Source of the DNA: Verrucomicrobiales bacterium
GTDB taxonomy: Bacteria > Verrucomicrobiota > Verrucomicrobiia > Verrucomicrobiales > DEV007
Reading direction: 5' to 3'
DNA: 64,000 nt
Assembly (NCBI GenBank): GCA_048267005.1
Contig: JBLWYI010000013.1
Coordinates: 118,455-182,454, forward strand
The notes under the pieces: model-generated
What the model was told of the DNA's origin: nothing
The model's input: only the letters and a program-made list of their open reading frames with translations
The model's database searches: none
Part shown: piece after piece, positions 5,966 through 52,505 of the stretch
How positions within the stretch are numbered: position 1 is the first letter of the stretch
Layout: each line of letters starts with the position of its first letter
Made by a program: the position numbers and the translations under genes

Positions 5966-7969
5966 TTATTTTGTCTCCACAGGAGGCTCGCTTACGAGTT
6001 GAACAAACGCTTCGATGGTTCGTTCAGCCTGGGTGCCGTTGAAGACCAGGTAGCGGTCTTTGCCGTTCTCTTTGCCTTTGCGATTGGGGCGGAACAGGGT
6101 TGCGCCGTCGTCTTCCACAGTCACTAAACCCGGGGGCGACAAATCGAAATATCCCCGGTCCGGATAAACGGCGTGCAGCACTGCCGTGAGATCCCAGGTG
6201 GGGCGGTCATGCGGTTTGGTGGGGACGTAGGCGAGGTAGCCTTCCCGGATGATGTGTTTGGGATCGTATTGGTAGTCCTGTTGAATGCTTCCCCAGGGAT
6301 AGGCTGCGGCGATTCCGATCTCGTAGCCGCTCCAGATAATGGGAGTGGGCCAGGTCTTTGCGAACGACTGCGCTGACGGGACATCGAGGCGGACGTTGTA
6401 TTCCAGATGACGGGTGTCGAAGCGCACGGTCTGGAAAGCGCCGGCCATGATGATGAGTTCTTTCACCTTGGCTTTGGCAAGAGCCACGCCATCGAGGTCG
6501 GAGTGTTCGTCTGGCTCTGATTCAAGGAGCTGGGCGAGGTTGGTGAAGAATCCGACCTGCGCGATTTTAACCGACTGATCGGGCTGTGCCGCGAGGGTTT
6601 TGCGAAGCAGAGCCACGGCATCTGGGGCATCCTTGCCGCTCTTCAAATCGTGATCATAATTATCGGCAAGTCCGTTGTAGCGTCCGGGCTCGGGAGTGAC
6701 ACCGTTGCGAACGGCACCCACGGGGATGTCGGGCCGACCGTAATAGGTGTTCAGGGCATCGATGAAGGGGGCTGATTTCTCATGATCCTTGGTCGAGGTG
6801 ACTGCCAGTAGCTCGACCGCACCGCGGCGCTCGAGCTGGTGAATCAATGCCAGAGCCATGGCATCATCGATGTCATTCCCCATGTCGGTGTCGAAGATCA
6901 GTTTCACTGGTTTCTCCAGTTTCGGGGCTGCGGCGATGTGGGCTGGGGGCTGAGCCACGAGATGGACGAGGGCTTCCTGGACCCGTGCGGTTTGTCCCGG
7001 GGTCATGGTCAGGAAGCGGTCCCGTTTCTGTGCGGGCTCTTTGCCTCCCGGGCTGAATCGGGTAAAGCCATCGTCTTCTACGGTGACACGCCCCGTCTTG
7101 GAGAAACCGAAGTAGCCCCGCTGCGGGAATACAGCGTAAAGCACGCTGGTTAAGTCCCACGTCGGTCGGTCATGCTCGGGGCCGCTGTGGAGGAGGTAAG
7201 CTTCTTTAACGGGATGCTTTTCCACATAGTTGAAATCGTTCCTGATGCTGGCGCGCGGGTAGGGCGCAGCGATCCCGATCTCGAATCCGCTCCAGACGAC
7301 GGGAATCTCGTTCGGCCATTCCGCTGCGAGGATCTGCATCGACTGGACGTGATTGCGAACATTGGCTTCGAGGTAGCGGTTGTTGTCGTTGATGGTTTCA
7401 AGCGAACCGGCCATCACTGAAAGCTCTTTCACCTTTTGGCGAATGAGTGCAGGGCCGCCTTCTTCCTTGAGAAGGTCAGCGAGGTTGGTGGCCAGTCCGA
7501 CCTGGACGATGGTGACGGATCGATCTTCTGCGGCGGTCAGGGTTTTCTTCAACAGAGAGACGGCATCTTCCGCGTCTTCGTCTTTGAGGTCGTGCGGGAA
7601 TGAATCAGCCAGCTTCAGGTATTTAGAATCACGGTCAGGAGCATTGGGATTGGTCCCGACCGGGATATCGGGGCGTCCGTAAAAAGTGTTCACTGCATCC
7701 ACAAAGGGAGCAGCCTGCGGGTGCTTCTTGGAGACTGTGACGGCGAGCAGCTCGCACTTCCCCCGGTCGGCCAGAGTGTGCAGCATGGCCAGAGCGAGGA
7801 CGTCATCAACATCACCGGTGATATCGGTGTCGAAGATAATGGGGACGGGCTTTTCCTCCGCGTAGGCAGCGATACCGAGGAGACAGGAGAGAGACAGGGC
7901 GACCAAACGAACCAACAGGGTTGGTTTGGTGATCGAACAGGGTTGGTTCGTAAGGAGAGGGGGAGTCAT
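5966..7969 (-). CDS. Tandem-duplicated IUNH-fold protein (two nucleoside-hydrolase-like domains)
   Basis: Two DTD motifs ('IIFDTDITGDVDDVLALAMLH' and 'LIFDTDMGNDIDDAMALALIH'). ATG at 7969 overlaps the permease stop (tcat, ATGA coupling). An alternative TTG start near 7915 would give a clean signal peptide 'MVRLVALSLSCLLGIAAYA' and place the REP-like element outside the CDS. Confidence 0.85.
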   Translation of the reverse strand: MTPPLLTNQPCSITKPTLLVRLVALSLSCLLGIAAYAEEKPVPIIFDTDITGDVDDVLALAMLHTLADRGKCELLAVTVSKKHPQAAPFVDAVNTFYGRPDIPVGTNPNAPDRDSKYLKLADSFPHDLKDEDAEDAVSLLKKTLTAAEDRSVTIVQVGLATNLADLLKEEGGPALIRQKVKELSVMAGSLETINDNNRYLEANVRNHVQSMQILAAEWPNEIPVVWSGFEIGIAAPYPRASIRNDFNYVEKHPVKEAYLLHSGPEHDRPTWDLTSVLYAVFPQRGYFGFSKTGRVTVEDDGFTRFSPGGKEPAQKRDRFLTMTPGQTARVQEALVHLVAQPPAHIAAAPKLEKPVKLIFDTDMGNDIDDAMALALIHQLERRGAVELLAVTSTKDHEKSAPFIDALNTYYGRPDIPVGAVRNGVTPEPGRYNGLADNYDHDLKSGKDAPDAVALLRKTLAAQPDQSVKIAQVGFFTNLAQLLESEPDEHSDLDGVALAKAKVKELIIMAGAFQTVRFDTRHLEYNVRLDVPSAQSFAKTWPTPIIWSGYEIGIAAAYPWGSIQQDYQYDPKHIIREGYLAYVPTKPHDRPTWDLTAVLHAVYPDRGYFDLSPPGLVTVEDDGATLFRPNRKGKENGKDRYLVFNGTQAERTIEAFVQLVSEPPVETK
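7901..7955. repeat. REP-like short repeat, two direct copies of the 'AACAGGGTTGG' core
   Basis: 'cgaaccaacagggttggtttgg' and 'gatcgaacagggttggttcg'; same core recurs at 7 or more other loci in the window. Confidence 0.6.
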
Positions 7970-8957: not shown

Positions 8958-9914
8958 TTAAAGGCTGTCTTTGGTGATGAGATCAACAGGAGTTTTCTGA
9001 TCAGCAGGGGTGTTTCCTTTGAGGATTTCCAATGCGGCTTCGATCCCGAACACTGCGAGGTCACCACCGTGTTGGTCAGCCGTTGCAAAGATGCGGCCCT
9101 CTTTGATGAGAGCTTGAACTGCGGAAATATTATCGAACCCGACGACCTTGACCTGATCTGATTTGCCAGCGGCTTTGATTGCTGACACTGCGCCAAGGGC
9201 CATGGAATCATTGCTGGCAAGGATGGCGGCGAGATCGGAGTGTTTCTGCAAGATCGCACTGGTGATCTGGTTGGCTTTATCCATTTCCCATTGCGCGCTC
9301 TGGGTCGATACGATTTCTGCTCCGGCGGCTTTCATGGCGTCTTCGAATCCAGCGCGTCGTTGCTGAGCATTGAACGCGGTGGGGACGCCCTCAAGGATGG
9401 CGACTTTTGCCCCGGCGGGGAGTTCTTTCGCGAGAGCTTCACCGACGATCCTGGCGCCTTCCCGGTTATCCGGACCGACGAAAGGGATCGTGGTCTCCGC
9501 TTGAGCCAGCACTTCCGCGTCGAGTTTGTTGTCGATGTTAATGACGGTGATTCCGGCTGCCCGGGCCCGCTTTAAAACGGTGATGAGAGCTTTGGAATCG
9601 GCTGGTGCGATGACGATGGCGTCGACTTTCTTTGCGATCATCTGCTCAACGAGAGCGACTTGCTGAGAGATGTCGGTCTCGTTCTTAATACCGTTTACGA
9701 TCAGTTTGTATTGTCCGGGGTGTGCTTTGGCGTGGGACTCTGCCCCGTCAGACATGGTTTTGAAGAACTCATTGGCGAGAGATTTCATGATCAGAGCGAC
9801 CTGAGGCGTCTCGTCTGCAGGTGCTGTCGCCGATTCATTGCCAGACCCGCAGGAAACGAGCGTAAGGGCGACAGCAGCGGCGGTCAGCTGTTGGAAAAGG
9901 CGTAAATAATTCAT
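8958..9914 (-). CDS. ABC transporter periplasmic sugar-binding lipoprotein (RbsB / PBP type I family)
   Basis: Lipobox 'LTLVSCGS'; periplasmic-binding-protein fold motifs ('KVDAIVIAP', 'GITVINID'). Confidence 0.85.
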   Translation of the reverse strand: MNYLRLFQQLTAAAVALTLVSCGSGNESATAPADETPQVALIMKSLANEFFKTMSDGAESHAKAHPGQYKLIVNGIKNETDISQQVALVEQMIAKKVDAIVIAPADSKALITVLKRARAAGITVINIDNKLDAEVLAQAETTIPFVGPDNREGARIVGEALAKELPAGAKVAILEGVPTAFNAQQRRAGFEDAMKAAGAEIVSTQSAQWEMDKANQITSAILQKHSDLAAILASNDSMALGAVSAIKAAGKSDQVKVVGFDNISAVQALIKEGRIFATADQHGGDLAVFGIEAALEILKGNTPADQKTPVDLITKDSL

Positions 9915-21871: not shown

Positions 21872-21989
21872 GAAACCAAAACAGAGAACCAAAGTAGAGC
21901 GGGGGCATCCTCCGCTCCGCAGTTTGCGCATCTTGTATTCGAAGGCACCTCGCCGGACCGCGAGTTGCCCACTCGCGTCAATGCCAAAA

Positions 21990-22032
21990 CGATCAGACCC
22001 TGTTCGTTCATCGGTCAGACCCTGTTGGATCG
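21990..22032. repeat. REP-like repeat, two copies in reverse orientation ('cagaccctgttcg', 'cagaccctgttggatcg')
   Basis: Lies between convergent sulfatase and DUF1501 genes. Confidence 0.6.
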
Positions 22033-22043
22033 TAAAGCCTCGA

Positions 22044-25648: not shown

Positions 25649-25717
25649 AGATTGAATCGTCTCTCAGGCCGCAATTTTCGTCAAGATCGTGAAATGGCTC
25701 AATCGGGCTGGCTGGAC

Positions 25718-26070
25718 GTGAATGGTCGTGACGGCAACCCGCTTCTGCTGCGGAAGAAGTGAATGGTCATGGTGGCAACTCGCTTCTGCTGCGGAAGAAG
25801 CGAATGGTCACGGTGGCAACTCGCTTCTGCTGCGGAAGAAGTGAATGGTCGTGGTGGCAACTCGCTTCTGCTGCGGAAGAAGCGAATGGTCATGGTGGCA
25901 ACTCGCTTCTGCTGCGGAAGAAGTGAATGGTCATGGTGGCAACTCGCTTCTGCTGCGGAAGAAGTGAATGGTCATGGTGGCAACTCGCTTCTGCTGCGGA
26001 AGAAGCGAATGGTCATGACGGCAACTCGCCTCTGCTGCGGAAGAAGTGAATGGTCATGATGGCAACTCGT
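25718..26070. repeat. Tandem array, 41-bp unit, ~8.6 contiguous copies ('gtgaatggtcatggtggcaactcgcttctgctgcggaagaa')
   Basis: Directly visible; units abut with no spacers, with a few point variants (c/t, a/g) between copies; sits in a divergent intergenic region. Confidence 0.95.
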
Positions 26071-26595
26071 TAGTAATGAGCCTTTTGTGTGTTGAGAGCC
26101 TGAACAGACGGGCTGGCTTGGACTTTTTCCTATGGTCCGACGCAGTTAAAGTTGAATTCGTTGAAAAACAGAACGGATTTTGGTGGTTAATGCGTTAATC
26201 AAAAGCAGGTTATAACCTTTGTTGAGTCTGTCTTGATTCCCCCTCAAACCAACCTGTTGCTGCGGTGAGTCGCCGTCCTCTCCCGCCGATATCACTTACG
26301 TAATTGTCCCGGCCGCCTCCCAAACAGGTGATTTGGCTGTGATATTTCTGGAAAATGGCTGTTTTCGGAGGCTGAAAGTCAAAATCGGCCCGTTGTGGCT
26401 ATTCGGATTTCCTTGCCAAAAGGGAGCGATTTCGTCATTCTGGCGTCATTACGTGGCACTTGTTTCCGCAGGGGTCCCTCTTGCTTAACCGCGCTTCGTA
26501 ACTATGTTTCTACTGGGTTGGTGTAATCTCGAGGCACCCATGCATTCCGAGATTTGTTCTGATCCTGTAAACTGTTTCAAGTTCCCTTCGACGTC

Positions 26596-31655: not shown

Positions 31656-32135
31656 TCAGTTTGTACCCAGGTCTTTCTGGATCTGTTCGAAATCTCCCTC
31701 TTCGCAGCAGCGGACGAATCCTTCAATGAAGGCTTTCAGCTTATCCCATACGAGTCGGATCTGAGCGGACTCTTCGGGGGTGATGGTATTATCAAGGGCT
31801 GCCTGTGAAACTACAGTGAGGAGTCCGGCGAACTGCTGGACGATTTCGTGGGTGGCTGGAACCACTTCATATCCCTCCTGGCAGGAGCTTTTCGGGTTGT
31901 TGACGAAATAGCCGCCGGCCTGCTGGCTGAGCCATTCGACAATGGCCGGTTCTTTGGTCAGCTGAATGAGCTGTGAGACCCGATCGAGCGGGTTCTTACT
32001 GCCGGAACCGTTTTCCGAGTTGGGTTGGGCCCACTTATAAACGAGCGAAAGAGAGACCCCCATTTCAGAGGCGATTTCTTTCGGGCTGGTCGTTGGGCTT
32101 TCGAAGGCAGTCTTGAGGACCTCGTGCGATTCCAT
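31656..32135 (-). CDS. Small HTH DNA-binding protein (putative transcriptional regulator), divergent from the NfeD-flotillin operon
   Basis: ATG at 32135 ('MESHEVLKT...'); HTH-like 'SPKEIASEMGVSLSLVYKWAQ'; ORF-track 70-codon upstream extension rejected. Confidence 0.6.
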   Translation of the reverse strand: MESHEVLKTAFESPTTSPKEIASEMGVSLSLVYKWAQPNSENGSGSKNPLDRVSQLIQLTKEPAIVEWLSQQAGGYFVNNPKSSCQEGYEVVPATHEIVQQFAGLLTVVSQAALDNTITPEESAQIRLVWDKLKAFIEGFVRCCEEGDFEQIQKDLGTN

Positions 32136-32420
32136 AGGCGTAGATTTTGGTTTAATTAGTGGGATAAAACAAGCTTCGGTTTTCTGAAGTTGAGACGATT
32201 TCATCAGAACAGCCCGGGATCGTCCGTTATAAACGCCTGTCTGTATTGTAACGGGAGTGATGACATCGTCGAAACTTACAAAAGTATCGACCAATTGTAA
32301 TGGGCAAAGGACGGGCAACGGGGCAACATCCTCACATGCGGTCAAAATAAGAGTAAGCCAGCTTGACGAACCTCATTTGAATTTTACACACTACCCACCA
32401 AGAACCACAGACCACAAGCC

Positions 32421-33167
32421 ATGCCAGAAATCATCCAGGAAGCGTTCAGGGGAATCAACCTTCCGATCACCATCGCACTTGGTGTCATTCTACTTTACTG
32501 GATAATCGCCATGTTGGGTATGATCGACCTGGATGCCATCGACGGATTTCTGGGGCTTGATACGGACGTTCACGTTGATGTGGACGGGCACGGGCACGGG
32601 CAAGGGGGCGACTCCGTAGATGGACACGGTGATGTTGAAGGACACGGCGAGGGGGCAACTCCTGAATCCCATTCGCCGAATGCCTTTCAGGCTGTTGCAA
32701 AGTTCATGGGCGCACAAGATGCGCCCATCATGTTTGTGCTGAGCACCTTCACGCTCATTCTCTGGGCGGGGAATTTGATCGGGAACTATTATTTCAACAA
32801 AGGTGACTCCACCTTTCTCGCCAACTGCATTCTGGGAGCCAGTCTGGTGGGCGCTTTCCTGCTCACCAAGCTTACGGTGCGCCCGCTCCGGCCTTTGATG
32901 AAAATGATGCGAACCGCATCGAACAATGAGCCTGTGATCGGAATGGCGGGAACGGTCCGCTCCAAAGAATTAACCATCGAATCAGGACAGGTAGAGGTGA
33001 TACAGGATGGCGCGTCCATTTTGTTGAATGCCCGGCTCTCCGAAGGTGCGTCCCGGCAGGTTGATCGAGGTGCTCAGGTATTGATCGTTGCGCGCGACGA
33101 TGACGGTAAGCGCTACGTGGCCAGGCCTCTCACACCCATTTCACAGAAAGAAACCAATAACAATTAA
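32421..33167 (+). CDS. NfeD-like membrane protein (short form, C-terminal OB-fold) with His/Asp/Gly-rich insert
   Basis: N-terminal TM helices, His-rich loop 'HVDVDGHGHGQGGDSVDGHGDVEGHGEG', C-terminal beta-rich NfeD-type domain; immediately upstream of an SPFH gene (canonical pairing). Confidence 0.75.
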   Translation: MPEIIQEAFRGINLPITIALGVILLYWIIAMLGMIDLDAIDGFLGLDTDVHVDVDGHGHGQGGDSVDGHGDVEGHGEGATPESHSPNAFQAVAKFMGAQDAPIMFVLSTFTLILWAGNLIGNYYFNKGDSTFLANCILGASLVGAFLLTKLTVRPLRPLMKMMRTASNNEPVIGMAGTVRSKELTIESGQVEVIQDGASILLNARLSEGASRQVDRGAQVLIVARDDDGKRYVARPLTPISQKETNNN

Positions 33168-33192
33168 CTGAAAACCGGAACCCTAAGAAACT

Positions 33193-35283
33193 ATGATACT
33201 AGCAGATATACCATTTTGGGCTCAGATCCTTGGATTCGCGATAGTCGCGGTCGTTGTGATTCTGTTCGCCACCGGCATCGTCTATGCCAGCCTCTTTAAA
33301 AAGGTTAAGAAAGGAACCGCTCTGGTCGTGACCGGTTCGGGAGGAACAAAAGTCTCCTTTAACGGGATCTTTGTTATTCCGATCTTTCATCGTGTTGAAG
33401 AGATCGACCTGTCTGTAAAGCGGATGGAGGTCGACCGGACCGGAGCGAACGGCTTGATCTGTAAGGACAACATGCGGGCGGACATCAAAGTTGCCTTCTT
33501 TGTCCGGGTGAATCCAACCAAAGACGATGTCATCCGCGTTGCGAATTCAATCGGGTGTGAGCGGGCTTCGAGTCTCGCTGAGGTTGAGCATCTGTTTGAT
33601 GCGAAGTTTTCTGAAGCCTTGAAGACTGTTGGTAAGCGCTTCAACTTCATTGAGCTTTATGAGGAACGGGACACCTTCCGTGATGAGATGATCAAGTTGA
33701 TCGGGACAGACCTCAATGGGTTCTCTCTTGAAGATGCGGCGATCGATTTCCTTGAGCAAACTCCACTGAGTTCGATGGATCCGGACAACATTCTCGATTC
33801 AGAAGGTATCAAGAAGATTACCGAACTGACCGCTACCCAGGCAAAGCTGGCGAACAATATTCAACGTGACAAGGAAAAGGTCATAAAGCAGCAGGACGTC
33901 GAGGCGAAGGAAGCAATTCTTGAGCTGGAACGACAGCAGGAAGAAGCGGTGTCCAAGCAGGCCCGCGAAGTGGCCAACGTTCGTGCCCGTGAGGAGGCGG
34001 AGTCTGCGAAAGTCATGCAGGAAGAAAAGCTGAAGTCCGAGCGTGCCCGGATTCAGACTGAAGAGGAAGTCGAGATCGCGACTCAGAACAAAGAGCGTGA
34101 GGTGATCGTTGCCCAGCGTAACAAGGAACGGACTGATGCCGTGGAACTTGAGCGGGTGAAGCGTGATCAGGAGCTTGAGGCGATCGAGCGGGACCGTGTT
34201 ACAACTCTGAAAGAGATCGAGAAGGAGAAGGCGGTTGAGATCGAGAAGAAGGAGATCCAGGACGTGATCAAGGAGCGCGTCGCAGTTGAAAAGCTGGTGG
34301 TTGAAGAGCAGCAGAAGATTCTCGATACCGAGGCCTTTGCCGGAGCTGATCGTGAGAAGCAGGTTGCCGTGACACTTGCGGAGAAGACAGCGCAGGAAGG
34401 CTTGATTCAGAAGATCAAAGAAGCCGAGGCAGCCAAGGAAGCGGCCCAGCTCAAGGCGGATCAGGACCTTTACGAGGTTGTGAAAAGAGCAGATGCCAGC
34501 AAGCAGGCTGCTGAATTGAAAGCTGAGGAAGTGGTCGTGGCCGCGGAAGCAGAGCAGACCGCATCAGAGAAACTCTCTGTGGCGAAGAAAACTCTCGCTG
34601 AAGGTGTCAAAGCTGAGATGGCGGCTCCCGGGTTGGGTGAAGCTGATGTGGTTGCTGCCCGCGGTAAAGCGGAAGCGTCTGCGGTTCAGGCGAAAGGCCT
34701 GGCGGAAGCTGAGGCAATCAGAGCGCATGGTTTGAGTGAAGCTGAAGGTATCGATGCGAAAGCGGATGCGATGAAGAAATACAACGACGCCGGTAAAGAG
34801 CATGAAGAATTCAAGCTCAACCTTGAGAAAGCGAAGGCGGTTGAACTCGCTGAGATCGAAGTTCGTGCCAAGGTTGCGGCGAAGCATTCTGAGGTCATGG
34901 CTGAAGCGCTTAAGTCTGCCAATATCGACATTGTCGGTGGTGAGACTGAGTTCTTCGACAAGATCACGAGTGCCATCACTCAGGGGAAAGCGGTTGACCG
35001 TCTGGTCGATAACAGCCACACCCTGACTACGGTTCGCGACACGTTCTTCACGGGTGATCCTGAAGATTTCCAGATTCAGATTCGCGAGTTCGTGGATCGG
35101 TTTGGAGTCTCCAGTGATGACCTGAAGAATCTCTCGATTGCCGCACTTCTCACCAGCATGATTGACCAGGCAGGTGACGATGGTGATACCAAGGGTAAGC
35201 TTGGCAGCATGTTAGGTGCCGTGAAGCGCTTCGGTATCAGCGACGAAAATGCCGGAAAAGTAATCAAGCGATTGACCAGTTAA
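33193..35283 (+). CDS. Flotillin / SPFH (band 7) family protein with extended E/A/K-rich coiled coil
   Basis: N-terminal TM anchor; SPFH core 'FIVPIFHRVEEIDLSVKRMEV...DIKVAFFVRV'; 696 aa, longer than typical FloT/YqiK. Confidence 0.9.
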   Translation: MILADIPFWAQILGFAIVAVVVILFATGIVYASLFKKVKKGTALVVTGSGGTKVSFNGIFVIPIFHRVEEIDLSVKRMEVDRTGANGLICKDNMRADIKVAFFVRVNPTKDDVIRVANSIGCERASSLAEVEHLFDAKFSEALKTVGKRFNFIELYEERDTFRDEMIKLIGTDLNGFSLEDAAIDFLEQTPLSSMDPDNILDSEGIKKITELTATQAKLANNIQRDKEKVIKQQDVEAKEAILELERQQEEAVSKQAREVANVRAREEAESAKVMQEEKLKSERARIQTEEEVEIATQNKEREVIVAQRNKERTDAVELERVKRDQELEAIERDRVTTLKEIEKEKAVEIEKKEIQDVIKERVAVEKLVVEEQQKILDTEAFAGADREKQVAVTLAEKTAQEGLIQKIKEAEAAKEAAQLKADQDLYEVVKRADASKQAAELKAEEVVVAAEAEQTASEKLSVAKKTLAEGVKAEMAAPGLGEADVVAARGKAEASAVQAKGLAEAEAIRAHGLSEAEGIDAKADAMKKYNDAGKEHEEFKLNLEKAKAVELAEIEVRAKVAAKHSEVMAEALKSANIDIVGGETEFFDKITSAITQGKAVDRLVDNSHTLTTVRDTFFTGDPEDFQIQIREFVDRFGVSSDDLKNLSIAALLTSMIDQAGDDGDTKGKLGSMLGAVKRFGISDENAGKVIKRLTS

Positions 35284-35465
35284 ATTAACAAGGCGGGTCC
35301 ACCGGTTGCGACAATTCCTCGTTGCACCGTGGACCGACGCCGTATTTGAGGGCCGTTTGGCTTTGCCTGAACGCTACCTTCCAAGAGGTATCGAACGAGG
35401 AAGACAAATTATAGAGAACCACGGGAGGACGAGAGATCGTTGATGTCCTTGGAGCTGAAAACAAC

Positions 35466-38400
35466 ATGCCCGAAGAACCAATAGAAAAAAACACTGACGC
35501 CGGGGCGTCAGGAGCGGAGCAGCAACTCGAAGGCGGTGCCTACGAGATCATCCGGAACCGCCTCACGCAGCACGGTTCGGATCTGCGAACCCGGCTTGGG
35601 AAACTCAACTCGGAACGGCAGGCCGTCTTTGGTGCCGTTGAGCCTGCCTTAATCGCGACCGAGCGGGTAACGACCGACAATAATTGTGAAGCCCGTGACA
35701 TCATCGCTGTCGGCGATAACAAGTTCATCTTTGGTTACAATGTTCACATCGGTCTTAAGTCGATAACTGATCTTGCAGATGTGTTTGCGGCTTATGAATA
35801 TGATCCTGACACGCACACATTTTCGGATGTGGGATTGGATATTCTGAACAAGGGCACTTTTGCCGAGGACTTTCTTTACCTGTATAAATACTATCGGGAA
35901 ACAGTCTTCGTGAAGTTTATGAAGATCGGGCCGCACCTCTACATGGCGTTCCGGGTGGGCAAAAAGGTGGATGACATCAAATGCTTCAAGTGGCTCATCA
36001 AAGAGGGTGGTGTTCTGGAATACATTGGCAACCGGTTCGATCATGAATACAGGTTTCCGCCTCAGCAGGAGTTTGAGTGGGTGCGCGCACATCGCGGGAT
36101 GTACCGCGAGGGGATGCACCCGCATGTTTCGATCGACGACCGGCTTTTTGTTGAGACCGTGGGAGGCGACCTGACTGTAAAGGTCGAGGACAACACAGAG
36201 TCAGGGGAGGGGATTTACGAAGAGCAGGTGACCAATGAGGATCAGACTCTGGATGACGCCGAGATCTTTTATGCCATTGTCGGCAGCCTCATTTTGTTGA
36301 AGGTCCTGCCTTATCAGGAAAAGGATTACCGCTACCTCGTCTACAATGAGAAAGTCAAGTCGGTCACCAGGATTGATTCGATCGCAAACTCCTGTGTGTT
36401 GCTTCCGGAAGATCACGGGATCATCTTTTCCGACGGCTTTCACCTTCAGACAGGGGATACCAAGCGTTTCGATTCAGGACTGAGAGATATGCTCTTTGAG
36501 CGACGGGTCGCTTCGCCCAATGGAGAGGATTTCCTTTACGTGTTTTACAACCGGCTGTCAGGGACCTATGTCCTGATGTCGTACAATCTCATCGATCAGA
36601 AGGTTGATAACCCGATTGTTTGCAACGGTTACACCGTTTTTAAAAACGGGGAGTTGATCTACTTCCGCACGGATGAAGAACCGAAGAAACACCATGCTCT
36701 TCAAGTCTGGACAACGCCCTACATGGAGGGCGAGTTCCGTGTCGATGAGAAGACGGACAGCTACCTTTTCAAGATCGGGAACGCAGAGGTGGTGCGTGCC
36801 ATGGCGGAGTGCCATGAGATATTAAATCTGATCTCCCGGGATGATTCTTACGCCGACTTGTATGTGGATCTGACCAAGAAAGCTGGTGACCTGATTGATA
36901 CTTACTTCTGGATTGGCCAGGAAGCTGCGTTCAACTTGAAAGCTGCCCTTGGTGAAATCAAGGGAGCTGCAGAGGCAGCAATATCCGAGTTTGACAAGGT
37001 TCAACGCCTTCGCAAATCAACGGCTGACGAGTCAAAACGGGTTTCCGATTCAGCGAAACAAATCGCTAAGGCGGCGCGTAATACACGCCCCGATGACATC
37101 ATGGGTTTCGTCCACCGGTTATCGGAATTGCGGACCGTTCGTGGAGAAATTATTTCCCTGAAGGATCTGCGTTACGTTGACTCTGATACGGTTGAATCTC
37201 TCGAAGCTGAGGTGGTCGAGGCTACCGAAATGGTGTCGCAGAACTGTGTGGAGTTTCTTCTGGAGCCTGTTGCACTTGATCCTTACCGAGAGCAGGTCTC
37301 AGTTCAGGAGAAACGGGTTCCTGAAGTGGCGAAAGTAACTGAGGCGGATCAGGTTGAGGAGGAACTCGACAAGGCCGGAGCGGAGTTGGAGATGCTGATT
37401 GAGATCGTCACGAACTTAAAGATTGAAGACGCGACGCAGACCACGCAGATCATTGATGATATATCGGCCATCTACGCGACGCTGAATGCGGTTCGTGCTT
37501 CGCTAAGGAATCGCCGCAAGGCACTTTCGAAAACCGAAGGCGCGGCTCAGTTCGGGGCGCAGGTAAAGCTGATCAACCAGGCCGTGATCAATTATCTGGA
37601 TTTGTGTGAGACGCCGGAAAAGACCGACGAGTATCTCTCCAAGGTCATGGTCCAGCTCGAGGAACTTGAGGGGAACTTTTCGGACTTCGAAGATTATGTT
37701 GATGAACTGACCGAAAAGCGGGACGAGATCTACAACGCGTTTGAATCAAAGAAAGTCGCTCTTGTCGAAGCGCGAAACAAACGGGCTGGATCGCTCGTGA
37801 AGTCAGCCGAGCGGGTTCTCACTACAATTCAGCATCGACTTTCCAGTCTCGATTCAATCCCGGATATCAATGGCTATCTTGCTGGCGATTTGATGGTCGA
37901 GAAAGTGCGGGATATCATTGAACAGCTCAATTTGGTCGGGGATTCCGTCAAAGCCGACGACATTCAGACACGGCTGAAAACGCTGAGGGATGATTCAGTT
38001 CGTCAGCTAAAAGACCGCCAGGAGCTGTTTGTCGACGGAAAGAATATTATCCAGTTCGGGAACAATAAGTTTTCCGTCAATTCACAGGAGTTGGAGCTCT
38101 CAATTGTTCCGCACAATGAGAAGATGTGTTTTCACCTGAGCGGGACAGATTTCTTTGAAGCTGTAACCGATGAAGAATTTCTATCGACAAAATCGGTCTG
38201 GAATCAGGAAGTGCTTTCAGAAAACCGAACCGTTTATCGTGCTGAATATCTGGCGTGGAAGTGTTTGCAAGCCGGTGTGGAGCCGACTCTCGAAGCCGTT
38301 CAGAAATTCATGGCTCCGCGATACGCGGAGGGTTATACCAAAGGAGTTCACGACCGCGATGGATTTGCCATCTACGAAAAGCTGCATTCGGTTCACAGCC

Positions 38401-40661
38401 AGGTTGGGTTGCTTCGTTTTGCTCCTGAAGACCGGGCGCTTGCGTTGCTGTTCCTTCACCAGTGGAAAACAGATGGGGGGCATGATCAACTCGCGAAGAA
38501 GATTCGTGGCCTTGGAATTCTAAGAGAGAGTTATGCTTCGGATGCGGTGGCTGAAATTTACGTTGGGGAAATCAAAGACGAGCTCAATCATTTTCTCGAA
38601 ACCAGTGCGAGAAACTGCCCTCGCCTTAAAGCGGCAAATATTGATCAAGCGGCTGAGTATTTGTTTTTCGAATTACTCGATGCAAAGAAGTTTGCGATAT
38701 CGCCTCAAGCTGGCGAGGTCGTGAAACAGTTTCAGCATACGTTAACCGCGAAGCGGCTTGAGAAGCAGTTCGCGGCCGCGGTGGAAGGTTTCAATGGTGA
38801 TGCCACGGGACGCTTCGAAGTCACTCGCGACTGGATCGAGGGAATCTGTGGAGCTGAGATTGAGAAGAATGAGGTTTCCCCTGATCAACTGTCAACGGAC
38901 GGAGAGAAGCAGGAACGATCCAACACTGTAAGTTCGTTGAACGTACCCTATTGGATCGAAGCGGCGGTTCATCTGGTTCGGGGAGGGTTTGAATTGACGG
39001 CGATTCAGCAGATTGAAATGTCAGCCGCTTTGGAGGGGATTACCGGGTCGCACTCACTTGTGGAAGACGGGGTTTACCAGTTCGATTATATCAATTTCAC
39101 TCAGAGGTTGCGTCGTTTTGAAACCGAGGACGCTCCGCGCTTCGCTGCGTATCAGCATCGCAAAACCGATTTGATCGAATCCAAGCGCGAGGAGATGCGT
39201 TTGGAAGAGTTTAAGCCCAAGGTGATGTCTGCATTTGTGCGGAATAAATTACTGAACCGAATCTATCTCCCGTTGATCGGTGACAATCTGGCGAAGCAAA
39301 TGGGAACTGCCGGTGCGGATACCCGGACAGACCGAATGGGAATGTTGCTTCTGATTTCTCCGCCCGGATACGGAAAGACGACTTTGATGGAATACGTCGC
39401 CAACCGGTTGGGGATCACATTCATGAAGATCAACGGGCCGGCCATCGGGCATGATGTGACTTCCCTGGATCCGGAAGAAGCGCCCAATGCAAGCGCCCGC
39501 GAGGAGGTCAACAAGCTGAACCTGTCGCTTGAGATGGGGGACAATGTCATGATTTATCTCGATGACATTCAGCACTGCAACCCTGAGTTTTTGCAGAAGT
39601 TTATTTCGCTATGTGATGCTCAGCGGAAGATCGAGGGCGTCTGGAAAGGCAAGCCGCGCACTTATGACTTGAGGGGAAAAAAGGTCTGCGTCGTGATGGC
39701 TGGAAACCCTTACACCGAGAGCGGTGGCAAGTTTCAGATTCCCGACATGCTCGCGAACCGGGCGGACACTTATAATCTGGGGGATATCATCGGGGCTCAT
39801 TCCGGTGACTTCGAGGCGAGTTACGTCGAGAACTGCCTCACTTCGAACTCTGTCCTGAGTCAACTCGCCAGTCGCAGTCAGTCGGATGTCTATTCGGTGA
39901 TGAAGATTGCGGAAACGGGCAGCCACGAAGGAGTCGACTTTGAAGGGAACTATTCGATGGAAGAGATTGAAGACTTGGTCTCGGTGATGAAGAAGTTGAT
40001 GCGGGTTCGCGATACGATCCTGCGGGTAAATATGGAATACATCCGTTCCGCCGCGATGGAAGATGACTACCGCACCGAGCCACCATTTAGAATGCAGGGC
40101 TCATACCGGAACATGAACCGGATCGCTGAGAAGATCTTACCGATCATGACGGATGCCGAGGTCGAGCAAGTGATTATGGATCACTATGAAAATGAATCGC
40201 AGACGCTGACGGCCGGAGCGGAGGCAAATTTGCTGAAATTCCGGGAGCTGGAAGGGATTCAGACTGATGAGGAGAAAGTGCGGTGGGATGAGATTAAATC
40301 GAAGTTCAATCGCAATCAGTTGATGGGCGGACGTGGTGAAAACGATCCTGTCTCACGGGTGGTTGGCACGCTGGCGAGTATTCATGAAACTCTGGCAAAA
40401 GCGGCAACGCACCAGATGCAGCCTGCTACGTTGGCTGATGTAACGGTTGAGAGGTTGGCTGAAATTATTGCAAACCTGCGAGCGGTTCCGGTGGATGTAG
40501 AGATCAAGGTGGTTCCCGTTCACGAAGGCGAAGAAGAGGGGCCTCCTAAGAAGGTATCGAAAAAGAAGTCAGCTAAAACGAAAAAGATCTCAGGCAAGGA
40601 GATCAACCTTCCCGTGGATGTTGAGGCTGTCGTCGACCAAAAAGATGGTAATTCGGACTAG
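35466..40661 (+). CDS. Giant (1731 aa) protein of unknown function with a single MoxR/AAA_5-like P-loop ATPase module near the C-terminus
   Basis: ATG at 35466; Walker A 'SPPGYGKTT' (~aa 1290), Walker B 'VMIYLDDIQH', sensor-1-like 'VVMAGNP', Arg-finger-like 'DMLANRADTY'; ~1250 aa upstream with no motifs I recognise; Lys-rich C-terminal tail. Confidence 0.85.
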   Translation: MPEEPIEKNTDAGASGAEQQLEGGAYEIIRNRLTQHGSDLRTRLGKLNSERQAVFGAVEPALIATERVTTDNNCEARDIIAVGDNKFIFGYNVHIGLKSITDLADVFAAYEYDPDTHTFSDVGLDILNKGTFAEDFLYLYKYYRETVFVKFMKIGPHLYMAFRVGKKVDDIKCFKWLIKEGGVLEYIGNRFDHEYRFPPQQEFEWVRAHRGMYREGMHPHVSIDDRLFVETVGGDLTVKVEDNTESGEGIYEEQVTNEDQTLDDAEIFYAIVGSLILLKVLPYQEKDYRYLVYNEKVKSVTRIDSIANSCVLLPEDHGIIFSDGFHLQTGDTKRFDSGLRDMLFERRVASPNGEDFLYVFYNRLSGTYVLMSYNLIDQKVDNPIVCNGYTVFKNGELIYFRTDEEPKKHHALQVWTTPYMEGEFRVDEKTDSYLFKIGNAEVVRAMAECHEILNLISRDDSYADLYVDLTKKAGDLIDTYFWIGQEAAFNLKAALGEIKGAAEAAISEFDKVQRLRKSTADESKRVSDSAKQIAKAARNTRPDDIMGFVHRLSELRTVRGEIISLKDLRYVDSDTVESLEAEVVEATEMVSQNCVEFLLEPVALDPYREQVSVQEKRVPEVAKVTEADQVEEELDKAGAELEMLIEIVTNLKIEDATQTTQIIDDISAIYATLNAVRASLRNRRKALSKTEGAAQFGAQVKLINQAVINYLDLCETPEKTDEYLSKVMVQLEELEGNFSDFEDYVDELTEKRDEIYNAFESKKVALVEARNKRAGSLVKSAERVLTTIQHRLSSLDSIPDINGYLAGDLMVEKVRDIIEQLNLVGDSVKADDIQTRLKTLRDDSVRQLKDRQELFVDGKNIIQFGNNKFSVNSQELELSIVPHNEKMCFHLSGTDFFEAVTDEEFLSTKSVWNQEVLSENRTVYRAEYLAWKCLQAGVEPTLEAVQKFMAPRYAEGYTKGVHDRDGFAIYEKLHSVHSQVGLLRFAPEDRALALLFLHQWKTDGGHDQLAKKIRGLGILRESYASDAVAEIYVGEIKDELNHFLETSARNCPRLKAANIDQAAEYLFFELLDAKKFAISPQAGEVVKQFQHTLTAKRLEKQFAAAVEGFNGDATGRFEVTRDWIEGICGAEIEKNEVSPDQLSTDGEKQERSNTVSSLNVPYWIEAAVHLVRGGFELTAIQQIEMSAALEGITGSHSLVEDGVYQFDYINFTQRLRRFETEDAPRFAAYQHRKTDLIESKREEMRLEEFKPKVMSAFVRNKLLNRIYLPLIGDNLAKQMGTAGADTRTDRMGMLLLISPPGYGKTTLMEYVANRLGITFMKINGPAIGHDVTSLDPEEAPNASAREEVNKLNLSLEMGDNVMIYLDDIQHCNPEFLQKFISLCDAQRKIEGVWKGKPRTYDLRGKKVCVVMAGNPYTESGGKFQIPDMLANRADTYNLGDIIGAHSGDFEASYVENCLTSNSVLSQLASRSQSDVYSVMKIAETGSHEGVDFEGNYSMEEIEDLVSVMKKLMRVRDTILRVNMEYIRSAAMEDDYRTEPPFRMQGSYRNMNRIAEKILPIMTDAEVEQVIMDHYENESQTLTAGAEANLLKFRELEGIQTDEEKVRWDEIKSKFNRNQLMGGRGENDPVSRVVGTLASIHETLAKAATHQMQPATLADVTVERLAEIIANLRAVPVDVEIKVVPVHEGEEEGPPKKVSKKKSAKTKKISGKEINLPVDVEAVVDQKDGNSD

Positions 40662-47428: not shown

Positions 47429-47860
47429 ATGCCAACAGATTTACGCAGCCTCACTTCCGAACAAGACACACACGACTTTGGTGCCGAAGTCGCAGTCGGC
47501 CTGAAATCTGGCAGCGTCATCGGGCTGATCGGTCAGCTTGGAGCCGGGAAAACCCACTTCACTCAGGGAATCGTTAATGCTCTAGGATCAGAGGAATCAG
47601 TCACCAGCCCGACTTTTACGCTGGTTAACGAATACCATGACGGTCGGCTTCCGGTCTTCCACTTTGACTTTTACCGGATGGATACCCGCGACGAAGTCCT
47701 CAAGATTGGGTGGGACGAATTCCTCGACGAGCCGGGTATCGTCATTGTCGAGTGGGCCGATAAATTTGCCGAATTGATGCCCGAAGAAACATCCTGGTTC
47801 ACATTCAAGATCCAACCGGACGGCACCCGAACGATCGAACAGGGTCTGTCCGACAAGTGA
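47429..47860 (+). CDS. tsaE: tRNA threonylcarbamoyladenosine biosynthesis protein TsaE
   Basis: ATG at 47429; P-loop 'GQLGAGKT' and 'SPTFTLVNEY' TsaE motifs. Confidence 0.9.
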   Translation: MPTDLRSLTSEQDTHDFGAEVAVGLKSGSVIGLIGQLGAGKTHFTQGIVNALGSEESVTSPTFTLVNEYHDGRLPVFHFDFYRMDTRDEVLKIGWDEFLDEPGIVIVEWADKFAELMPEETSWFTFKIQPDGTRTIEQGLSDK

Positions 47861-47874
47861 ACAGGGTTGGATCG
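47831..47874. repeat. REP-like repeat pair ('cgatcgaacagggtctg' + 'gaacagggttggatcg') spanning the tsaE stop codon
   Basis: First copy encodes the last residues of TsaE (..EQGLSDK*), second copy lies in the convergent intergenic gap. Confidence 0.65.
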
Positions 47875-47879
47875 AAAAC

Positions 47880-48860
47880 CTAGACCGTTTGGCTGGTCTT
47901 TCGCTTTGCCCAGGCCGCTGCGCCCATCACTCCCGCATCATCTTCGAGGCTGGCTGCCACCACCTTGAAGCTGTTCTTGTAAGTCGCGATGAGATGCTTG
48001 TTGGCTGATTTGTGAACGTTCTTCACGTAAAGGTCAGGCAGAGCTTCGACTAAGCCACCACCGAGAACAATCAGGTCCGGTGCCAGGAGATGCACCACGG
48101 TGGCCACGCCGGCTCCCAGAGTTTTTGCCGCCTCCTTCACAATCTTTTCGATCGCTTTGTCGCCTTTCTCAATTGAGGCCGCGAGCTTTCCGCTGGTGAT
48201 TTTAGAAATATCAGTACCGCACAGTTTCAATAAATGGGGAGCCTGTCCACGGTAGGCCGCGCGGGCCGCTTCGATTGCAATTTTCAATCGGCTGCACTCA
48301 GTTTCCAGAGACGGGCCACCGTTCCCCAGAGGGATGTGTCCCAGCTCCATACAGGAAAGCTTGCCGCCCTGAAGCAACTGGCCATCCAGAACCGCACCCG
48401 CACCAATCCCGGTTCCGGGGAAAATTCCCACCACACAGTCCACACCTTTGGCGACACCCATTTGGTATTCGGCATAGATCCCGGCATCGACGTCATTGCA
48501 AATCCAGGTCGGAGCCCCGAACTCAGCAGTCAGATGCTCAGAGACCGGTACGTTTTTCCAGCCCAGATTCGGGGCTTCCACGAGGATGCCCGTCTTCGGG
48601 TTGATTGGACCGGGGCAACCCACTCCAATCGTTTCGATCTGATCCGCAGTTACTCCCGCGTTGTCGAGGGCTTCGCGAATAGTCAGTGCCATTCTCTTCA
48701 AGCCGGAGCTGACTCCGCGATGGCCTTCCGTTTTCGTCTTGGCACGTCCCAGCTCTTCGAAATTGTCATCGAAAATCTTAGCCAGCATTTTCGTGCCGCC
48801 GAGATCGAATCCGACGATGACTGAACCAGTATGAGATGGGGGGGATTGTTCTTTGCTCAT
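47880..48860 (-). CDS. ROK family sugar kinase (glucokinase-like)
   Basis: 'VIVGFDLGGTKM' and 'GCPGPIN' ROK motifs; ATG overlaps the dxr stop. Confidence 0.9.
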   Translation of the reverse strand: MSKEQSPPSHTGSVIVGFDLGGTKMLAKIFDDNFEELGRAKTKTEGHRGVSSGLKRMALTIREALDNAGVTADQIETIGVGCPGPINPKTGILVEAPNLGWKNVPVSEHLTAEFGAPTWICNDVDAGIYAEYQMGVAKGVDCVVGIFPGTGIGAGAVLDGQLLQGGKLSCMELGHIPLGNGGPSLETECSRLKIAIEAARAAYRGQAPHLLKLCGTDISKITSGKLAASIEKGDKAIEKIVKEAAKTLGAGVATVVHLLAPDLIVLGGGLVEALPDLYVKNVHKSANKHLIATYKNSFKVVAASLEDDAGVMGAAAWAKRKTSQTV

Positions 48861-50029
48861 GACGCAACGATTGAGGTGGCTGTCTCACGGGCCCATGTAT
48901 CTGCAGCGATAATTTCGTCCAGAGTCGGATGCGCTGTCACGGAGTGATCGGCCATTACCTGACCCACCGTTTCCCAGATTTGGGGAAAACCCAACGATTT
49001 TTCCAGAAAAGCGGCCACTGCAATCTCATTGGCAGCATTCATCACTGCCGGAAGCGTTCCTCCTTCTTTGCCCGCCCGCTTGGCGAGATTCAGAGCCGGG
49101 AAGTCATCAAACCTGGGTTTCTCAAAATCGAGCTGCGCCAGTTCGGCGAAATCAAGCGGTGGCAATGTGTTTGGAACCCGCTCCGGCCAGGTCACTGCGT
49201 ATTGAATCGGGAAACACATGTCCGTGGTGCTGAGCTGCGCCAGAATGGAGCCATCAATAAATTCCACCATGCTGTGGACGATACTCTGTGGGTGGACGAT
49301 GACATCGACGCGATCCATTTCGACATCGAAGAGCCATCGTGCCTCTATCATTTCCAGGCCTTTGTTGAAAAGGGTCGCAGAGTCGATCGTGATCTTCCGG
49401 CCCATTTCCCATGTGGGGTGTTTCAAGGCCTGCTCCACGGTGACAGCATCCAGTTCCTCCTTCGGTGACTGGCGAAAAGGCCCACCGGACGCCGTCAGGA
49501 TAAGTCGGGAAACATCGGTCGATTTCTTTCCCTCAAGACACTGGAAGATCGCATTGTGCTCCGAGTCGACCGGCAACACATTGACTCCTTTTTCGCGGGC
49601 AGCGGTCATCACCGCTTCGCCGGCCATGACCAGAATCTCCTTGCTGGCTACGGCAATGTCTTTCCCGGCCTCGATAGCTGCCAGCGCAGGGCGGAGCCCG
49701 TCCGTGCCGACAATCGCGATGAGAACCATGTCAGCTTCAGGCAGCGTGGCCAGCTCGATCATGCCCTCTTCGCCGACACCGGTCTTTATATCGATCCCGT
49801 TTAAGCCACTCTTCAATTCGCCATGGCAGGATTCGTCCGTCAGCGAGCAATGTTTGACTGAGAATTCCGCACACTGTTCAGCGAGACGCTTCGCACTGCG
49901 ATTCGCGGCGAGAGCGATGACCTCCATTCTCTCCGGAATATCGCGAGCCACTTTAAGCGCGCTTTCCCCGATGGAACCGGTGGATCCAAGAATAACGAGT
50001 TTTTTCGGGGGAGGGGAGTCTTCAGGCAT
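48857..50029 (-). CDS. dxr: 1-deoxy-D-xylulose 5-phosphate reductoisomerase
   Basis: 'KKLVILGSTGSIGESAL' NADPH-binding motif; ATG at 50029 preferred over GTG at 50038. Confidence 0.95.
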   Translation of the reverse strand: MPEDSPPPKKLVILGSTGSIGESALKVARDIPERMEVIALAANRSAKRLAEQCAEFSVKHCSLTDESCHGELKSGLNGIDIKTGVGEEGMIELATLPEADMVLIAIVGTDGLRPALAAIEAGKDIAVASKEILVMAGEAVMTAAREKGVNVLPVDSEHNAIFQCLEGKKSTDVSRLILTASGGPFRQSPKEELDAVTVEQALKHPTWEMGRKITIDSATLFNKGLEMIEARWLFDVEMDRVDVIVHPQSIVHSMVEFIDGSILAQLSTTDMCFPIQYAVTWPERVPNTLPPLDFAELAQLDFEKPRFDDFPALNLAKRAGKEGGTLPAVMNAANEIAVAAFLEKSLGFPQIWETVGQVMADHSVTAHPTLDEIIAADTWARETATSIVAS

Positions 50030-50034
50030 GTGGG

Positions 50035-50940
50035 TCACGAAATAAACAGCAAATACAGATACAGAACAGGAGCGGTAAACAGCACTGAATCAATCAGATC
50101 CAGCACCCCACCAATGCCGGGCATTTTGCGGCCGGAATCTTTGGCTTCCAGGCTTCGCTTCAGGATTGATTCCGCCAAATCTCCCAAAACCGCGACCAGC
50201 GCCAGCGCTACCGCCAGTATGGCGGCATGAAGCGGAGTGATCAGGGGAATCTTGTCCCCGAAGAGAAAATACGCTCCGAAACTCGCAATGAATCCAAAGA
50301 GAATGGCCCCGCCGAAGCCCTGCCAGGTCTTACCGGGGCTGACATGCGGTACCATTTTGTCGCGACCGATCAGTGAGCCCACCGCGTAGGCACCCATATC
50401 GGTGAACTTGGTGACCATCAGCAGGAAAAGAACGTAAAAATGAGCAGAATCGTTTCCGGACGTATCTTTCAGATCGAGCAGCAGGATCTTCGGCACAAAA
50501 GCGAAAAGAATCACGATGTAGATAAAACCAAAGATGGTCGTCGATATTTCATCCAGTGTCCGGAACCCTTCAATCGGGGCGCGCAACCGTTCCAGCACAA
50601 CACAGATCACCAGCGCTGCGACGGCCAGGCTGTCCAGATCAACAAGCCAGTCCGGCGAGAAACCCCAGTGCCGGGCAAAAAGCAACCCGAGGTAGGCTGC
50701 AGTGACCCCATAGGTCTGCCATTGAAACCGGCGAAAGCCCCGCAGGGGGAACAGTCCGAAGTATTCAAACAACGCCAGAAACGCGATGGCCCCGGCGATG
50801 GTGAAAAACAACCAGTCGATCGCCAACCAGAACGCCACGACGAAAAAGGCCCACAAAAAAAGCGTGCTGACGAGGCGGCTGCCGAAAACTTGTTTTTTCG
50901 AAGGCTTAGGGGCGGTTTTTTCTGAAGAATCGTCGGACAT
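50035..50940 (-). CDS. cdsA: Phosphatidate cytidylyltransferase (CDP-diglyceride synthase)
   Basis: C-terminal signature 'ESILKRSLEAKDSGRKMPGIGGVLDLIDS'; ATG at 50940. Confidence 0.9.
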   Translation of the reverse strand: MSDDSSEKTAPKPSKKQVFGSRLVSTLFLWAFFVVAFWLAIDWLFFTIAGAIAFLALFEYFGLFPLRGFRRFQWQTYGVTAAYLGLLFARHWGFSPDWLVDLDSLAVAALVICVVLERLRAPIEGFRTLDEISTTIFGFIYIVILFAFVPKILLLDLKDTSGNDSAHFYVLFLLMVTKFTDMGAYAVGSLIGRDKMVPHVSPGKTWQGFGGAILFGFIASFGAYFLFGDKIPLITPLHAAILAVALALVAVLGDLAESILKRSLEAKDSGRKMPGIGGVLDLIDSVLFTAPVLYLYLLFIS

Positions 50941-51036
50941 GCAAGCGGGCAATTCGCCGCCAAGGAAACAGGGTCACGACCGAGTTGGCAATGACGAAGT
51001 TGCGCAAATTCACCACTTAAAGCGTTAGTTCCGGTT

Positions 51037-51381
51037 TCAATCAGGTTCTCCCCGCTTCGCATCACCCACCCCATCAAGGAAGAATTCGAGGTGACCGCAT
51101 TCCGGGCAGTGGTAAATGTCGAACCGCTCCGATCGCGAGCCGAGTTGGAACCCCATCAGGTGAATTTCAAGTGAGTCATCCTCTTTAAACCTGCGGGTGC
51201 CGTCATAAACGAGCTGCTTGTTGCAGCGAAGACAGCTCATGAAGCGTTTGATTTTCTTCGCATGAGCTTGTCGCTCCAGGGCCAACTCATCCGGCTTTGC
51301 TCCTTTGTCAGAAGAGCAGCGCCAGCAAGTTTCCCACGAATCTTCGTCGATTTCGGCTTCGCATACCAGGCAGGTCCACAT
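51037..51381 (-). CDS. Small double zinc-ribbon protein (hypothetical)
   Basis: Two CxxC..CxxC pairs ('CLVCEAE..CWRCSS', 'CLRCNK..CPECGH'). Confidence 0.6.
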   Translation of the reverse strand: MWTCLVCEAEIDEDSWETCWRCSSDKGAKPDELALERQAHAKKIKRFMSCLRCNKQLVYDGTRRFKEDDSLEIHLMGFQLGSRSERFDIYHCPECGHLEFFLDGVGDAKRGEPD

Positions 51382-51407
51382 CCGTTGTTTCTATCAGAAA
51401 TCTACGG

Positions 51408-52250: not shown

Positions 52251-52277
52251 ACTGTTCTGCGTTTTGGTGTAACCGGG

Positions 52278-52505
52278 TCAGAACACTCCGGAGATGCCGG
52301 AGCAGGTAGCGGCGGCTGCCATGAAGAAAATAGGTCGATTGGAGCGGGCTGCTTCTGCGAGAGCGGTGTCCCAGGTCGTGTACCACATAATGCCGGCATC
52401 ACCGACTGGTTGAGGGCTCGCCGCGATGTCGGTCGGGCGGGTTCCCTGTGAGTATACTGCAGTTGCCCCGAGGGTTGCTACCATAAGTGTTTTCAGGATA
52501 TTCAT
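52278..52505 (-). CDS. Small putative secreted protein (75 aa)
   Basis: ATG; signal-peptide-like 'MNILKTLMVATLGATAVYSQG'; directly upstream of the preceding hypothetical gene. Confidence 0.35.
   Translation of the reverse strand: MNILKTLMVATLGATAVYSQGTRPTDIAASPQPVGDAGIMWYTTWDTALAEAARSNRPIFFMAAAATCSGISGVF

Follow-up and report, generated by a model that had tools for sequence, protein, structure and literature searches.

The nearest known phenomenon to the repeats considered here is the repeat burst in Borg elements (Methanoperedens), which carry independent tandem repeats that related genomes almost entirely lack (PMC9879509). Intergenic Borg units are described there as not being multiples of three and as accompanied by partial repeats at the flanks, and the repeats as mostly perfect, A-rich, of many unit lengths (18, 20 and 21 nt among them) and often located in ORFs; that a dedicated mechanism, such as a CRISPR-like integrase, might form them is also discussed (PMC9879509). 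CRISPR arrays themselves combine a regular period with partly palindromic repeats, and the length of the CRISPR repeat is set by an integrase ruler, which provides a conceptual model for any duplication of fixed length. Several spacer-less arrays with one unit length per genome are also found among the pneumococcal BOX elements (boxB) and in the BrickBuilt MITE of P. gingivalis, whose bricks are reportedly 23 nt long; there, the equal period comes from one and the same unit sequence, together with conserved leader and tail modules and inverted ends. Contiguous units with a palindromic core in each are also seen in sopC of the F plasmid, where SopB binds the 16-bp palindrome present in every one of twelve 43-bp units.

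In the window – by which we mean the whole stretch of 64,000 nt analysed here, from the chromosome of an uncultured member of the Verrucomicrobiales – we find three tandem arrays, each of which most likely repeats, head to tail, a 41-bp unit with a short palindrome at its heart, and lies in a promoter-containing intergenic region:

25718–26069, no strand assigned: array 1 (Tandem Repeats Finder, TRF: 8.6 copies, 94% matches, score 613)
Make-up of array 1, from the unit listing: eight full 41-bp units and a 24-bp partial unit, consensus GTGAATGGTCATGGTGGCAACTCGCTTCTGCTGCGGAAGAA
52759–52978, no strand assigned: array 2 as delimited by TRF (5.4 copies, 91% matches, score 279)
52759–53005: full extent of array 2 by right-edge alignment (six units, the last decayed)
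63868–64000, no strand assigned: array 3 (TRF: 3.2 copies, 90% matches, score 217)

TRF, run on the 64,000-nt window, gives all three a period of 41 with 0% indels, and in a repeat search the start-to-start spacing is exactly 41 throughout; the shared exact period from which the earlier note had argued is thereby confirmed. The copy count of array 3 (consensus unit CGACCTTCCGAACGTTCAGACACGGGGTTGTGAAAAACAAA) is a lower bound of at least 3.2 units, as the end of the window cuts the array. Across the whole window, the remaining TRF rows are trivial (at most about 4 copies, period at most 21, score at most 52), and a lag-by-lag autocorrelation scan of the window minus the arrays, with the identity threshold set at 72%, revealed no further duplication whose period exceeds 22 bp. 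Since TRF and the lag scan show nothing else above 22 bp, all substantial tandem duplications in the window have a single unit length.

Array 2, whose units fall into two subtypes, a (...GGGCAGGTACCACACGGATATGGGC...) and b (...GGTCATAAATCGTACGGACATGAGC...), had previously been placed at 52728–52990. That there is an array at this site stands, while both of its limits have to be moved: it starts at 52759, the extra 30 bp on the left being an inverted rather than a direct copy of the start of the unit, and on the right it continues into a decayed, a-like last unit of 42 nt (52964–53005 by right-edge alignment).

Head-to-tail copies of a 10–100 bp unit, as recovered here by TRF and the repeat search, are the structural hallmark of a VNTR or minisatellite, a class that the arrays also resemble in their imperfect intergenic copies, homogenised centre, decayed edges and partial terminal unit. 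They depart from it in two respects: ordinary VNTR loci of one genome vary in unit length, whereas every array above 22 bp here has a period of 41, and the density of arrays is far above that in relatives. A CRISPR array was considered and rejected, as in the earlier note, for the unit-to-unit spacing of 41 equals the unit length, with no unique interspersed sequence; the arrays have no spacers and no leader, 41 bp is too short for a repeat plus spacer, and no cas gene was found in the window by a Pfam search of 38 of the 42 larger ORFs. A protein-coding role, already judged unlikely, was likewise rejected: stops occur in nearly every frame, no plausible ORF runs across any array, and the sole open frame, on the minus strand of array 2, comprises 82 codons with no start context.

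The comparison with the other systems is similarly mixed. The arrays share with sopC their contiguous units of ~41–43 bp and may share its palindromic core, as each consensus unit has a palindrome, albeit one that is broken in some units of array 2 and significant in array 1 only; but here there are three of them, with different sequences, in a chromosomal context beside housekeeping genes; neither rep nor parAB lies next to any array, and an iteron or sopC-like centromere was rejected. A MITE-embedded minisatellite of the BrickBuilt type and a BOX element were also rejected, the units being unrelated and the flanks dissimilar on both strands. REP/BIME elements do not match either: the array units are absent elsewhere in the window and from the relatives' loci, where they meet only chance matches of 10–13 nt, and an antisense or target role was rejected on the same grounds. 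With the Borg burst, the arrays have in common that they are genome-specific, that relatives lack them, that the intergenic unit is not a multiple of three and that a partial unit occurs at the flank; they differ in their 90–94% identity, their single 41-bp length, their location in a bacterial chromosome and their Verrucomicrobiales host. The A content of the units (9–14 of 41 positions) shows no general A bias, which also sets them apart from Borg-type repeats. In the literature, we found no report of sequence-unrelated arrays sharing one unit length in a prokaryotic genome, and a search on Verrucomicrobia minisatellites returned nothing relevant.

All three arrays are intergenic and located upstream of gene starts. 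Array 1 lies between the divergent PSD (minus) and WD40 (plus, start 26596) genes, a layout that bears out its assignment to a divergent promoter-containing region. The distance of 70 bp to the PSD start given in the earlier note applies if the GTG at 25648 (longest ORF) is used; with the start of the 771-aa protein called by NCBI (P0001), which lies another 51 bp inside the ORF, it increases to as much as 121 bp. The WD40 gene, which the earlier note put at a distance of 525 bp, has its ORF start 526 bp downstream of the array. Array 3 lies 294 bp upstream of a minus-strand gene (62999–63574), in a low-GC (46%) segment. The genes next to the arrays – PSD/DUF1552, WD40, a glycosyltransferase and a TIR-domain gene – are in a chromosomal context. 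Pfam assignments for 38 of the 42 larger ORFs of the window include purH, dxr, cdsA, ROK, sulfatases, PSD/PSCyt/DUF1501 and an ECF sigma/anti-sigma pair, and in the same set of ORFs no transposase, integrase, Cas, reverse transcriptase, Rep or Par was found.

Some further features of these surroundings deserve mention in their own right. The segment at ~62000–64000, with a GC content of 46% vs ~54%, encodes a TIR-domain protein (62598–63002, minus) and a 191-aa protein without known function (62999–63574, minus), and may be a defence islet, array 3 being just upstream. Between a 280-aa gene and array 2, there is a 75-aa ORF (52278–52505, minus) with strong DNA-level conservation in a related locus (L032, where it has 101 aa); because of this conservation, it is a real gene, one that a 100-aa cutoff misses. 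A gene cluster at 31656–40661, conserved in a relative (L001 1–4608; the 77% relative discussed below), holds a Phage_CP76-like regulator, two proteins of 248 and 696 aa without Pfam domains, and a DUF3686/DUF7902/AAA ATPase of 1731 aa whose annotation reads 'ATPase involved in DNA repair'. Finally, a REP-like element is dispersed over the window; it consists of two copies of 22 bp each, with a consensus of ~CGAWCSAACAGGGTYKGWYCG, and is usually found at gene 3' ends:

7907–7951, 21989–22033, 38915–38959, 47831–47897, 52594–52638 and 62544–62588: sites of the REP-like element in the window (also at L001 13572–13624 and L008 916–958 in relatives)

This family is common to related Verrucomicrobiales MAGs, and a 19-mer of it occurs three times in the window. 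Its copy at 52616–52638 can be drawn as a hairpin that resembles a terminator, with a T-run behind it, and is the source of the one such hairpin brought up by the terminator search.

That the arrays are unrelated in sequence, as proposed earlier, is confirmed. When the consensus units were compared in all 41 rotations and on both strands, the best identities were 15–21 of 41 positions, compared with a shuffle mean of 17.4; the sole pair to reach p ~0.025 (uncorrected) was the array 2b unit with the array 3 unit, a weak match of 21/41 in the same register. A reduced-alphabet comparison revealed no common W/S or R/Y profile, and local alignment of the array flanks on either strand detected no mutual similarity, no common termini and no terminal inverted repeats. 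Unrelated units with unlike flanks argue against the simple copying of one element.

Within each array, the units are by contrast alike, with 90–94% identity, and vary in a structured way. From one unit of array 1 to the next, the differences from the consensus number 4, 0, 2, 1, 1, 0, 0, 4 and 1, so that the edges are the most diverged, and the seven variable sites are all transitions. Such diverged edge units, together with the decayed end of array 2, are commonly seen in genuine arrays whose evolution proceeds by internal exchange. The flanks of array 1 and the left edge of array 2 carry additional repeats:

25704–25717, plus strand: left copy of a 14/15-bp direct repeat, CGGGCTGGC-TGGAC, abutting array 1 (flank local alignment)
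26109–26123, plus strand: right copy of this repeat, CGGGCTGGCTTGGAC, 39 bp past the end of array 1 (weak extended similarity, z ~3)
52745–52782, no strand assigned: 38-bp near-palindrome at the left edge of array 2, arms 84% complementary (inverted-repeat search)

The direct repeat pair brackets a segment of 391 bp, namely array 1 and a 39-bp tail, and a relative has one homologous copy (ATCGGGCTG...). Array 1 alone has such repeats; none were found flanking array 2. The near-palindrome of array 2 has a perfect 20-bp core (CCGTCAGGACGTCCTGACGG, 52754–52773), and its left arm repeats the beginning of the first unit in inverted orientation.

The relatives that can be compared lack the arrays. 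The PSD protein beside array 1 has a 100%-identical NCBI entry (P0001), its next best match, at 77%, being from a Verrucomicrobiales MAG; for the glycosyltransferase beside array 2, the matches are at 100%, then 78% and 71%. The 77% relative preserves the synteny and divergent orientation of the WD40 and PSD genes, and both ends of the spacer between them align well with ours, but this spacer measures 333 bp vs 947 bp here and contains no array. The array 2 spacer, between the small gene and the glycosyltransferase, is ~130–390 bp long in the 78% relative vs ~680–930 bp here, again with no array there. The intergenic regions of arrays 1 and 2 are ~500–640 bp longer than in these nearest relatives (77–78% amino-acid identity), and no single-copy proto-unit was detected in the relatives' orthologous spacers at the two loci. 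As the arrays are absent there at both testable loci, arrays 1 and 2 most likely arose after the split from the nearest sequenced relatives. ERR2206768_bin.6 and SS_bin_30 are among the array-free relatives. More broadly, TRF was applied to ~266 kb of non-redundant sequence from PVC relatives and detected not one array whose period exceeds 22 bp, compared with three in 64 kb here, or about 1 per 21 kb; if rates are assumed to be equal, the probability that all three fall in the 64-kb window is, by our own arithmetic, ~0.007. A 27-mer of array 1 had no match in a metagenome collection, where the PSD protein is represented by 11 short loci, and the unit cores had no match in a viral collection.

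Two observations on these spacers and gene orders stand apart from the arrays. Upstream of the WD40/PSCyt1 gene, a 32-nt block (GCGTCATTACGTGGCACTTGTTTCCGCAGGGG, 26443–26474) is almost invariant in the 77% relative (L001 ~9803–9834, minus), the rest of the WD40–PSD spacer having diverged around it; it is probably the promoter or operator of that gene, and its TGGCAC recalls a sigma-54 −24 element, the spacing to GC being off by one. In the 78% relative, a cdsA–dxr–ROK block lies downstream of the glycosyltransferase (window 47880–55003 vs L032 8770–15079), whereas here it is inverted and lies beyond the 280-aa gene; the array 2 spacer itself is not where the breakpoint falls.

These results bear first on common descent, according to which a single ancestral 41-bp satellite or mobile minisatellite was dispersed in the lineage, with concerted evolution preserving the length of the unit while the arrays diverged from each other to saturation. 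The high identity within arrays and random identity between them would be expected on this account, the decay at the edges fits concerted evolution, the weak match between array 2b and array 3 units might be a last trace of kinship, and the direct repeat round array 1 and its tail resembles a target-site duplication. Yet array 1 is unlike both other arrays, array 2 has no flanking direct repeats, and termini, flanks and core motif are not shared; no transposase is encoded by the 38 of the 42 larger window ORFs that were annotated, and the array-free ~266 kb of relatives' DNA mean that the family would have to be old enough for saturation and at the same time restricted to this lineage. On balance, we consider common descent unlikely, though by no means negligible.

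Each consensus unit contains a palindrome. The unit of array 1 is dyad-symmetric, with 13 of 20 positions pairing in Watson–Crick fashion and 17 of 20 when G–U pairs on the plus strand are included (p 0.002–0.006); the dyad centres are at unit positions 13 and 33.5, and the strong palindromic element is CGCTTCT-N8-AGAAGCG. The b units of array 2 carry the palindromes AGGACGTCCT and CGTACG, and the unit of array 3 a near-palindrome, TCCGAACGTTCAGA. Dyad symmetry is statistically significant in array 1 only, and a-type units of array 2 have a disrupted palindrome (AGTGCGTCCT).

Such arrays might be rows of palindromic protein-binding sites – of the sopC type, operators or decoys – for proteins of one architectural family, with selection maintaining the spacing of 41 bp, or about four helical turns. 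The palindromes of all three arrays agree with this functional reading, as does the position of every array upstream of a gene start, and 41-bp arrays with palindromic cores are found in phage contigs as well. The broken palindrome of the a-type units and the confinement of significant symmetry to array 1 speak against it, as do the lack of adjacent par, rep or regulator genes and the fact that relatives have no arrays at the same promoters. Nor does the helical phasing suggested by the earlier note receive specific support: phasing would allow 40–42, 31 or 52 bp, whereas all periods are exactly 41, the arrays have no common W/S or R/Y profile, and array 1 has no real A-tract. We therefore regard rows of protein sites as distinctly unlikely.

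The arrays might also be transcribed and act as structured RNAs, for instance as hairpin arrays or protein sponges, an RNA module then setting the length of the unit. Array 1 folds far better on the plus strand (−57 kcal/mol, z −6.2) than on the minus strand (−34 kcal/mol, z −3.5) – although shuffle z-scores are inflated in any palindrome-bearing repeat – and the gain in pairing from G–U pairs and the restriction of its variable sites to transitions would suit this reading. In the main stem, however, two of the three variable sites break pairs upon inspection of the unit listing, and arrays 2a and 3 fold no better than shuffles. Rfam 15 gave no match at gathering score in the window, a permissive search of the three intergenic regions returning sub-threshold hairpin look-alikes within the noise; consensus promoters or terminators flanking the arrays were not found, and inside the arrays there are no sigma-70 promoters or intrinsic terminators above shuffle expectation. 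A structured repeat RNA is accordingly quite improbable.

As the contig is metagenome-assembled and the arrays occur in no independent assembly, we also considered that a de Bruijn-graph or gap-closing step (e.g. with k = 41) might have created or re-sized them, 41 being a k value in some multi-k assembly schedules. The structured substitutions, unit subtypes and decayed edges are not of a kind that assemblers invent. The longest exact internal repeats of the three arrays are 81, 62 and 23 bp, which is below the usual final k and read lengths, so that ordinary short-read assembly can resolve the arrays uniquely; the arrays were counted as internal to a 182-kb contig, and the literature on period-k artefacts yielded no report of such a case. 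An assembly artefact is in our judgement very improbable.

Could three independent, slippage-born minisatellites have acquired the same unit length by chance? Minisatellites of ~40 bp do occur, and intergenic 41-bp arrays are present in phage contigs: examples are L041 10800–11205 (IMGVR_UViG_2823181820_000004), where two abutting 41-bp arrays have diverged units, and other IMG/VR loci (L043–L067), with clear palindromes in units such as AAGTCGCTTCGCGACTT and TTGTCCACGTTTTTTGTGGACAA. As a control, IMG/VR was scanned for four occurrences of GGAC at spacings of 40, 41 and 42 bp, giving 52, 27 and more than 120 raw pattern stretches, respectively; among the loci fetched, TRF confirmed 22, 22 and 35 true arrays. 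From these counts, 41 bp is not a generally favoured period. In a background set of 84 arrays from the IMG/VR loci that were not selected by the search pattern (periods 23–120 bp, at least 3 copies), none has a period of 41, and the probability of three arrays agreeing in any one period is ~0.012. The earlier verdict that independent slippage is unlikely to explain the shared period is upheld by this coincidence probability of ~0.01 or less, by the lack of preference for 41 bp in IMG/VR and by the absence of arrays from relatives, with the unequal density described above (3 in 64 kb vs 0 in 266 kb). Chance is unlikely even allowing for the fact that the finding was picked because of the coincidence, and as an explanation for all three arrays we consider it most improbable.

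The reading that we prefer – tentatively, and at somewhat less than even confidence – is that the arrays are real, non-coding, lineage-specific minisatellites that stem from one genome-specific process with a fixed 41-bp register. A common process is favoured by the exact period of 41, the unrelated units, the improbability of coincidence and the absence from relatives. Such a process would duplicate DNA in a fixed 41-bp register, whatever its sequence. It might take the form of nicks that are staggered by a constant distance and then filled in, in the manner of CRISPR repeat or target-site duplication, or of template switching at hairpins of fixed geometry; the palindrome in each unit and the inverted copy to the left of array 2 fit hairpin or template-switch activity at these sites. 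Thereafter, copy number would drift by slipped-strand or unequal exchange, with the centre becoming homogenised while the edges decay.

The evidence base for a process with a 41-bp ruler consists of three arrays in one window of one MAG, and several findings count against it. Among the window genes (Pfam, 38 of the 42 larger ORFs), there is no integrase, Cas1-like protein, HUH or other transposase, or reverse transcriptase that could be a candidate enzyme, and we know of no 41-bp ruler in bacteria. A simple staggered-cut model predicts whole units, against which the 24-bp partial unit of array 1 counts; the lag scan found no young two-copy 41-bp duplications in the window; and flanking direct repeats are confined to array 1. 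A more specific version of the fixed-register process, which we hold to be doubtful and entertain at low confidence, would invoke a lineage enzyme with a 41-bp ruler that, at palindromic sites between genes, duplicates any local sequence in tandem without spacers. This enzyme would be a staggered-cut integrase or nuclease, or would act through hairpin-guided template switching, and would represent an undescribed cousin of the machinery for CRISPR repeat or target-site duplication.

What the arrays mean for the biology of these bacteria depends on whether a sharp 41-bp peak among unrelated arrays extends over the whole genome. Without such a peak, they would be three ordinary VNTR loci in promoter regions, which might still serve as strain markers and might modulate the flanking PSD/DUF1552, WD40/FG-GAP and glycosyltransferase genes. 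With it, they would suggest that repeats are formed here by a mechanism gauging length rather than sequence; to our knowledge, length-measuring repeat formation in prokaryotes is essentially limited to CRISPR repeat duplication and the target-site duplications of transposons. The arrays would then offer a tractable bacterial case for the question posed by Borgs, namely how genome-specific bursts of repeats form.
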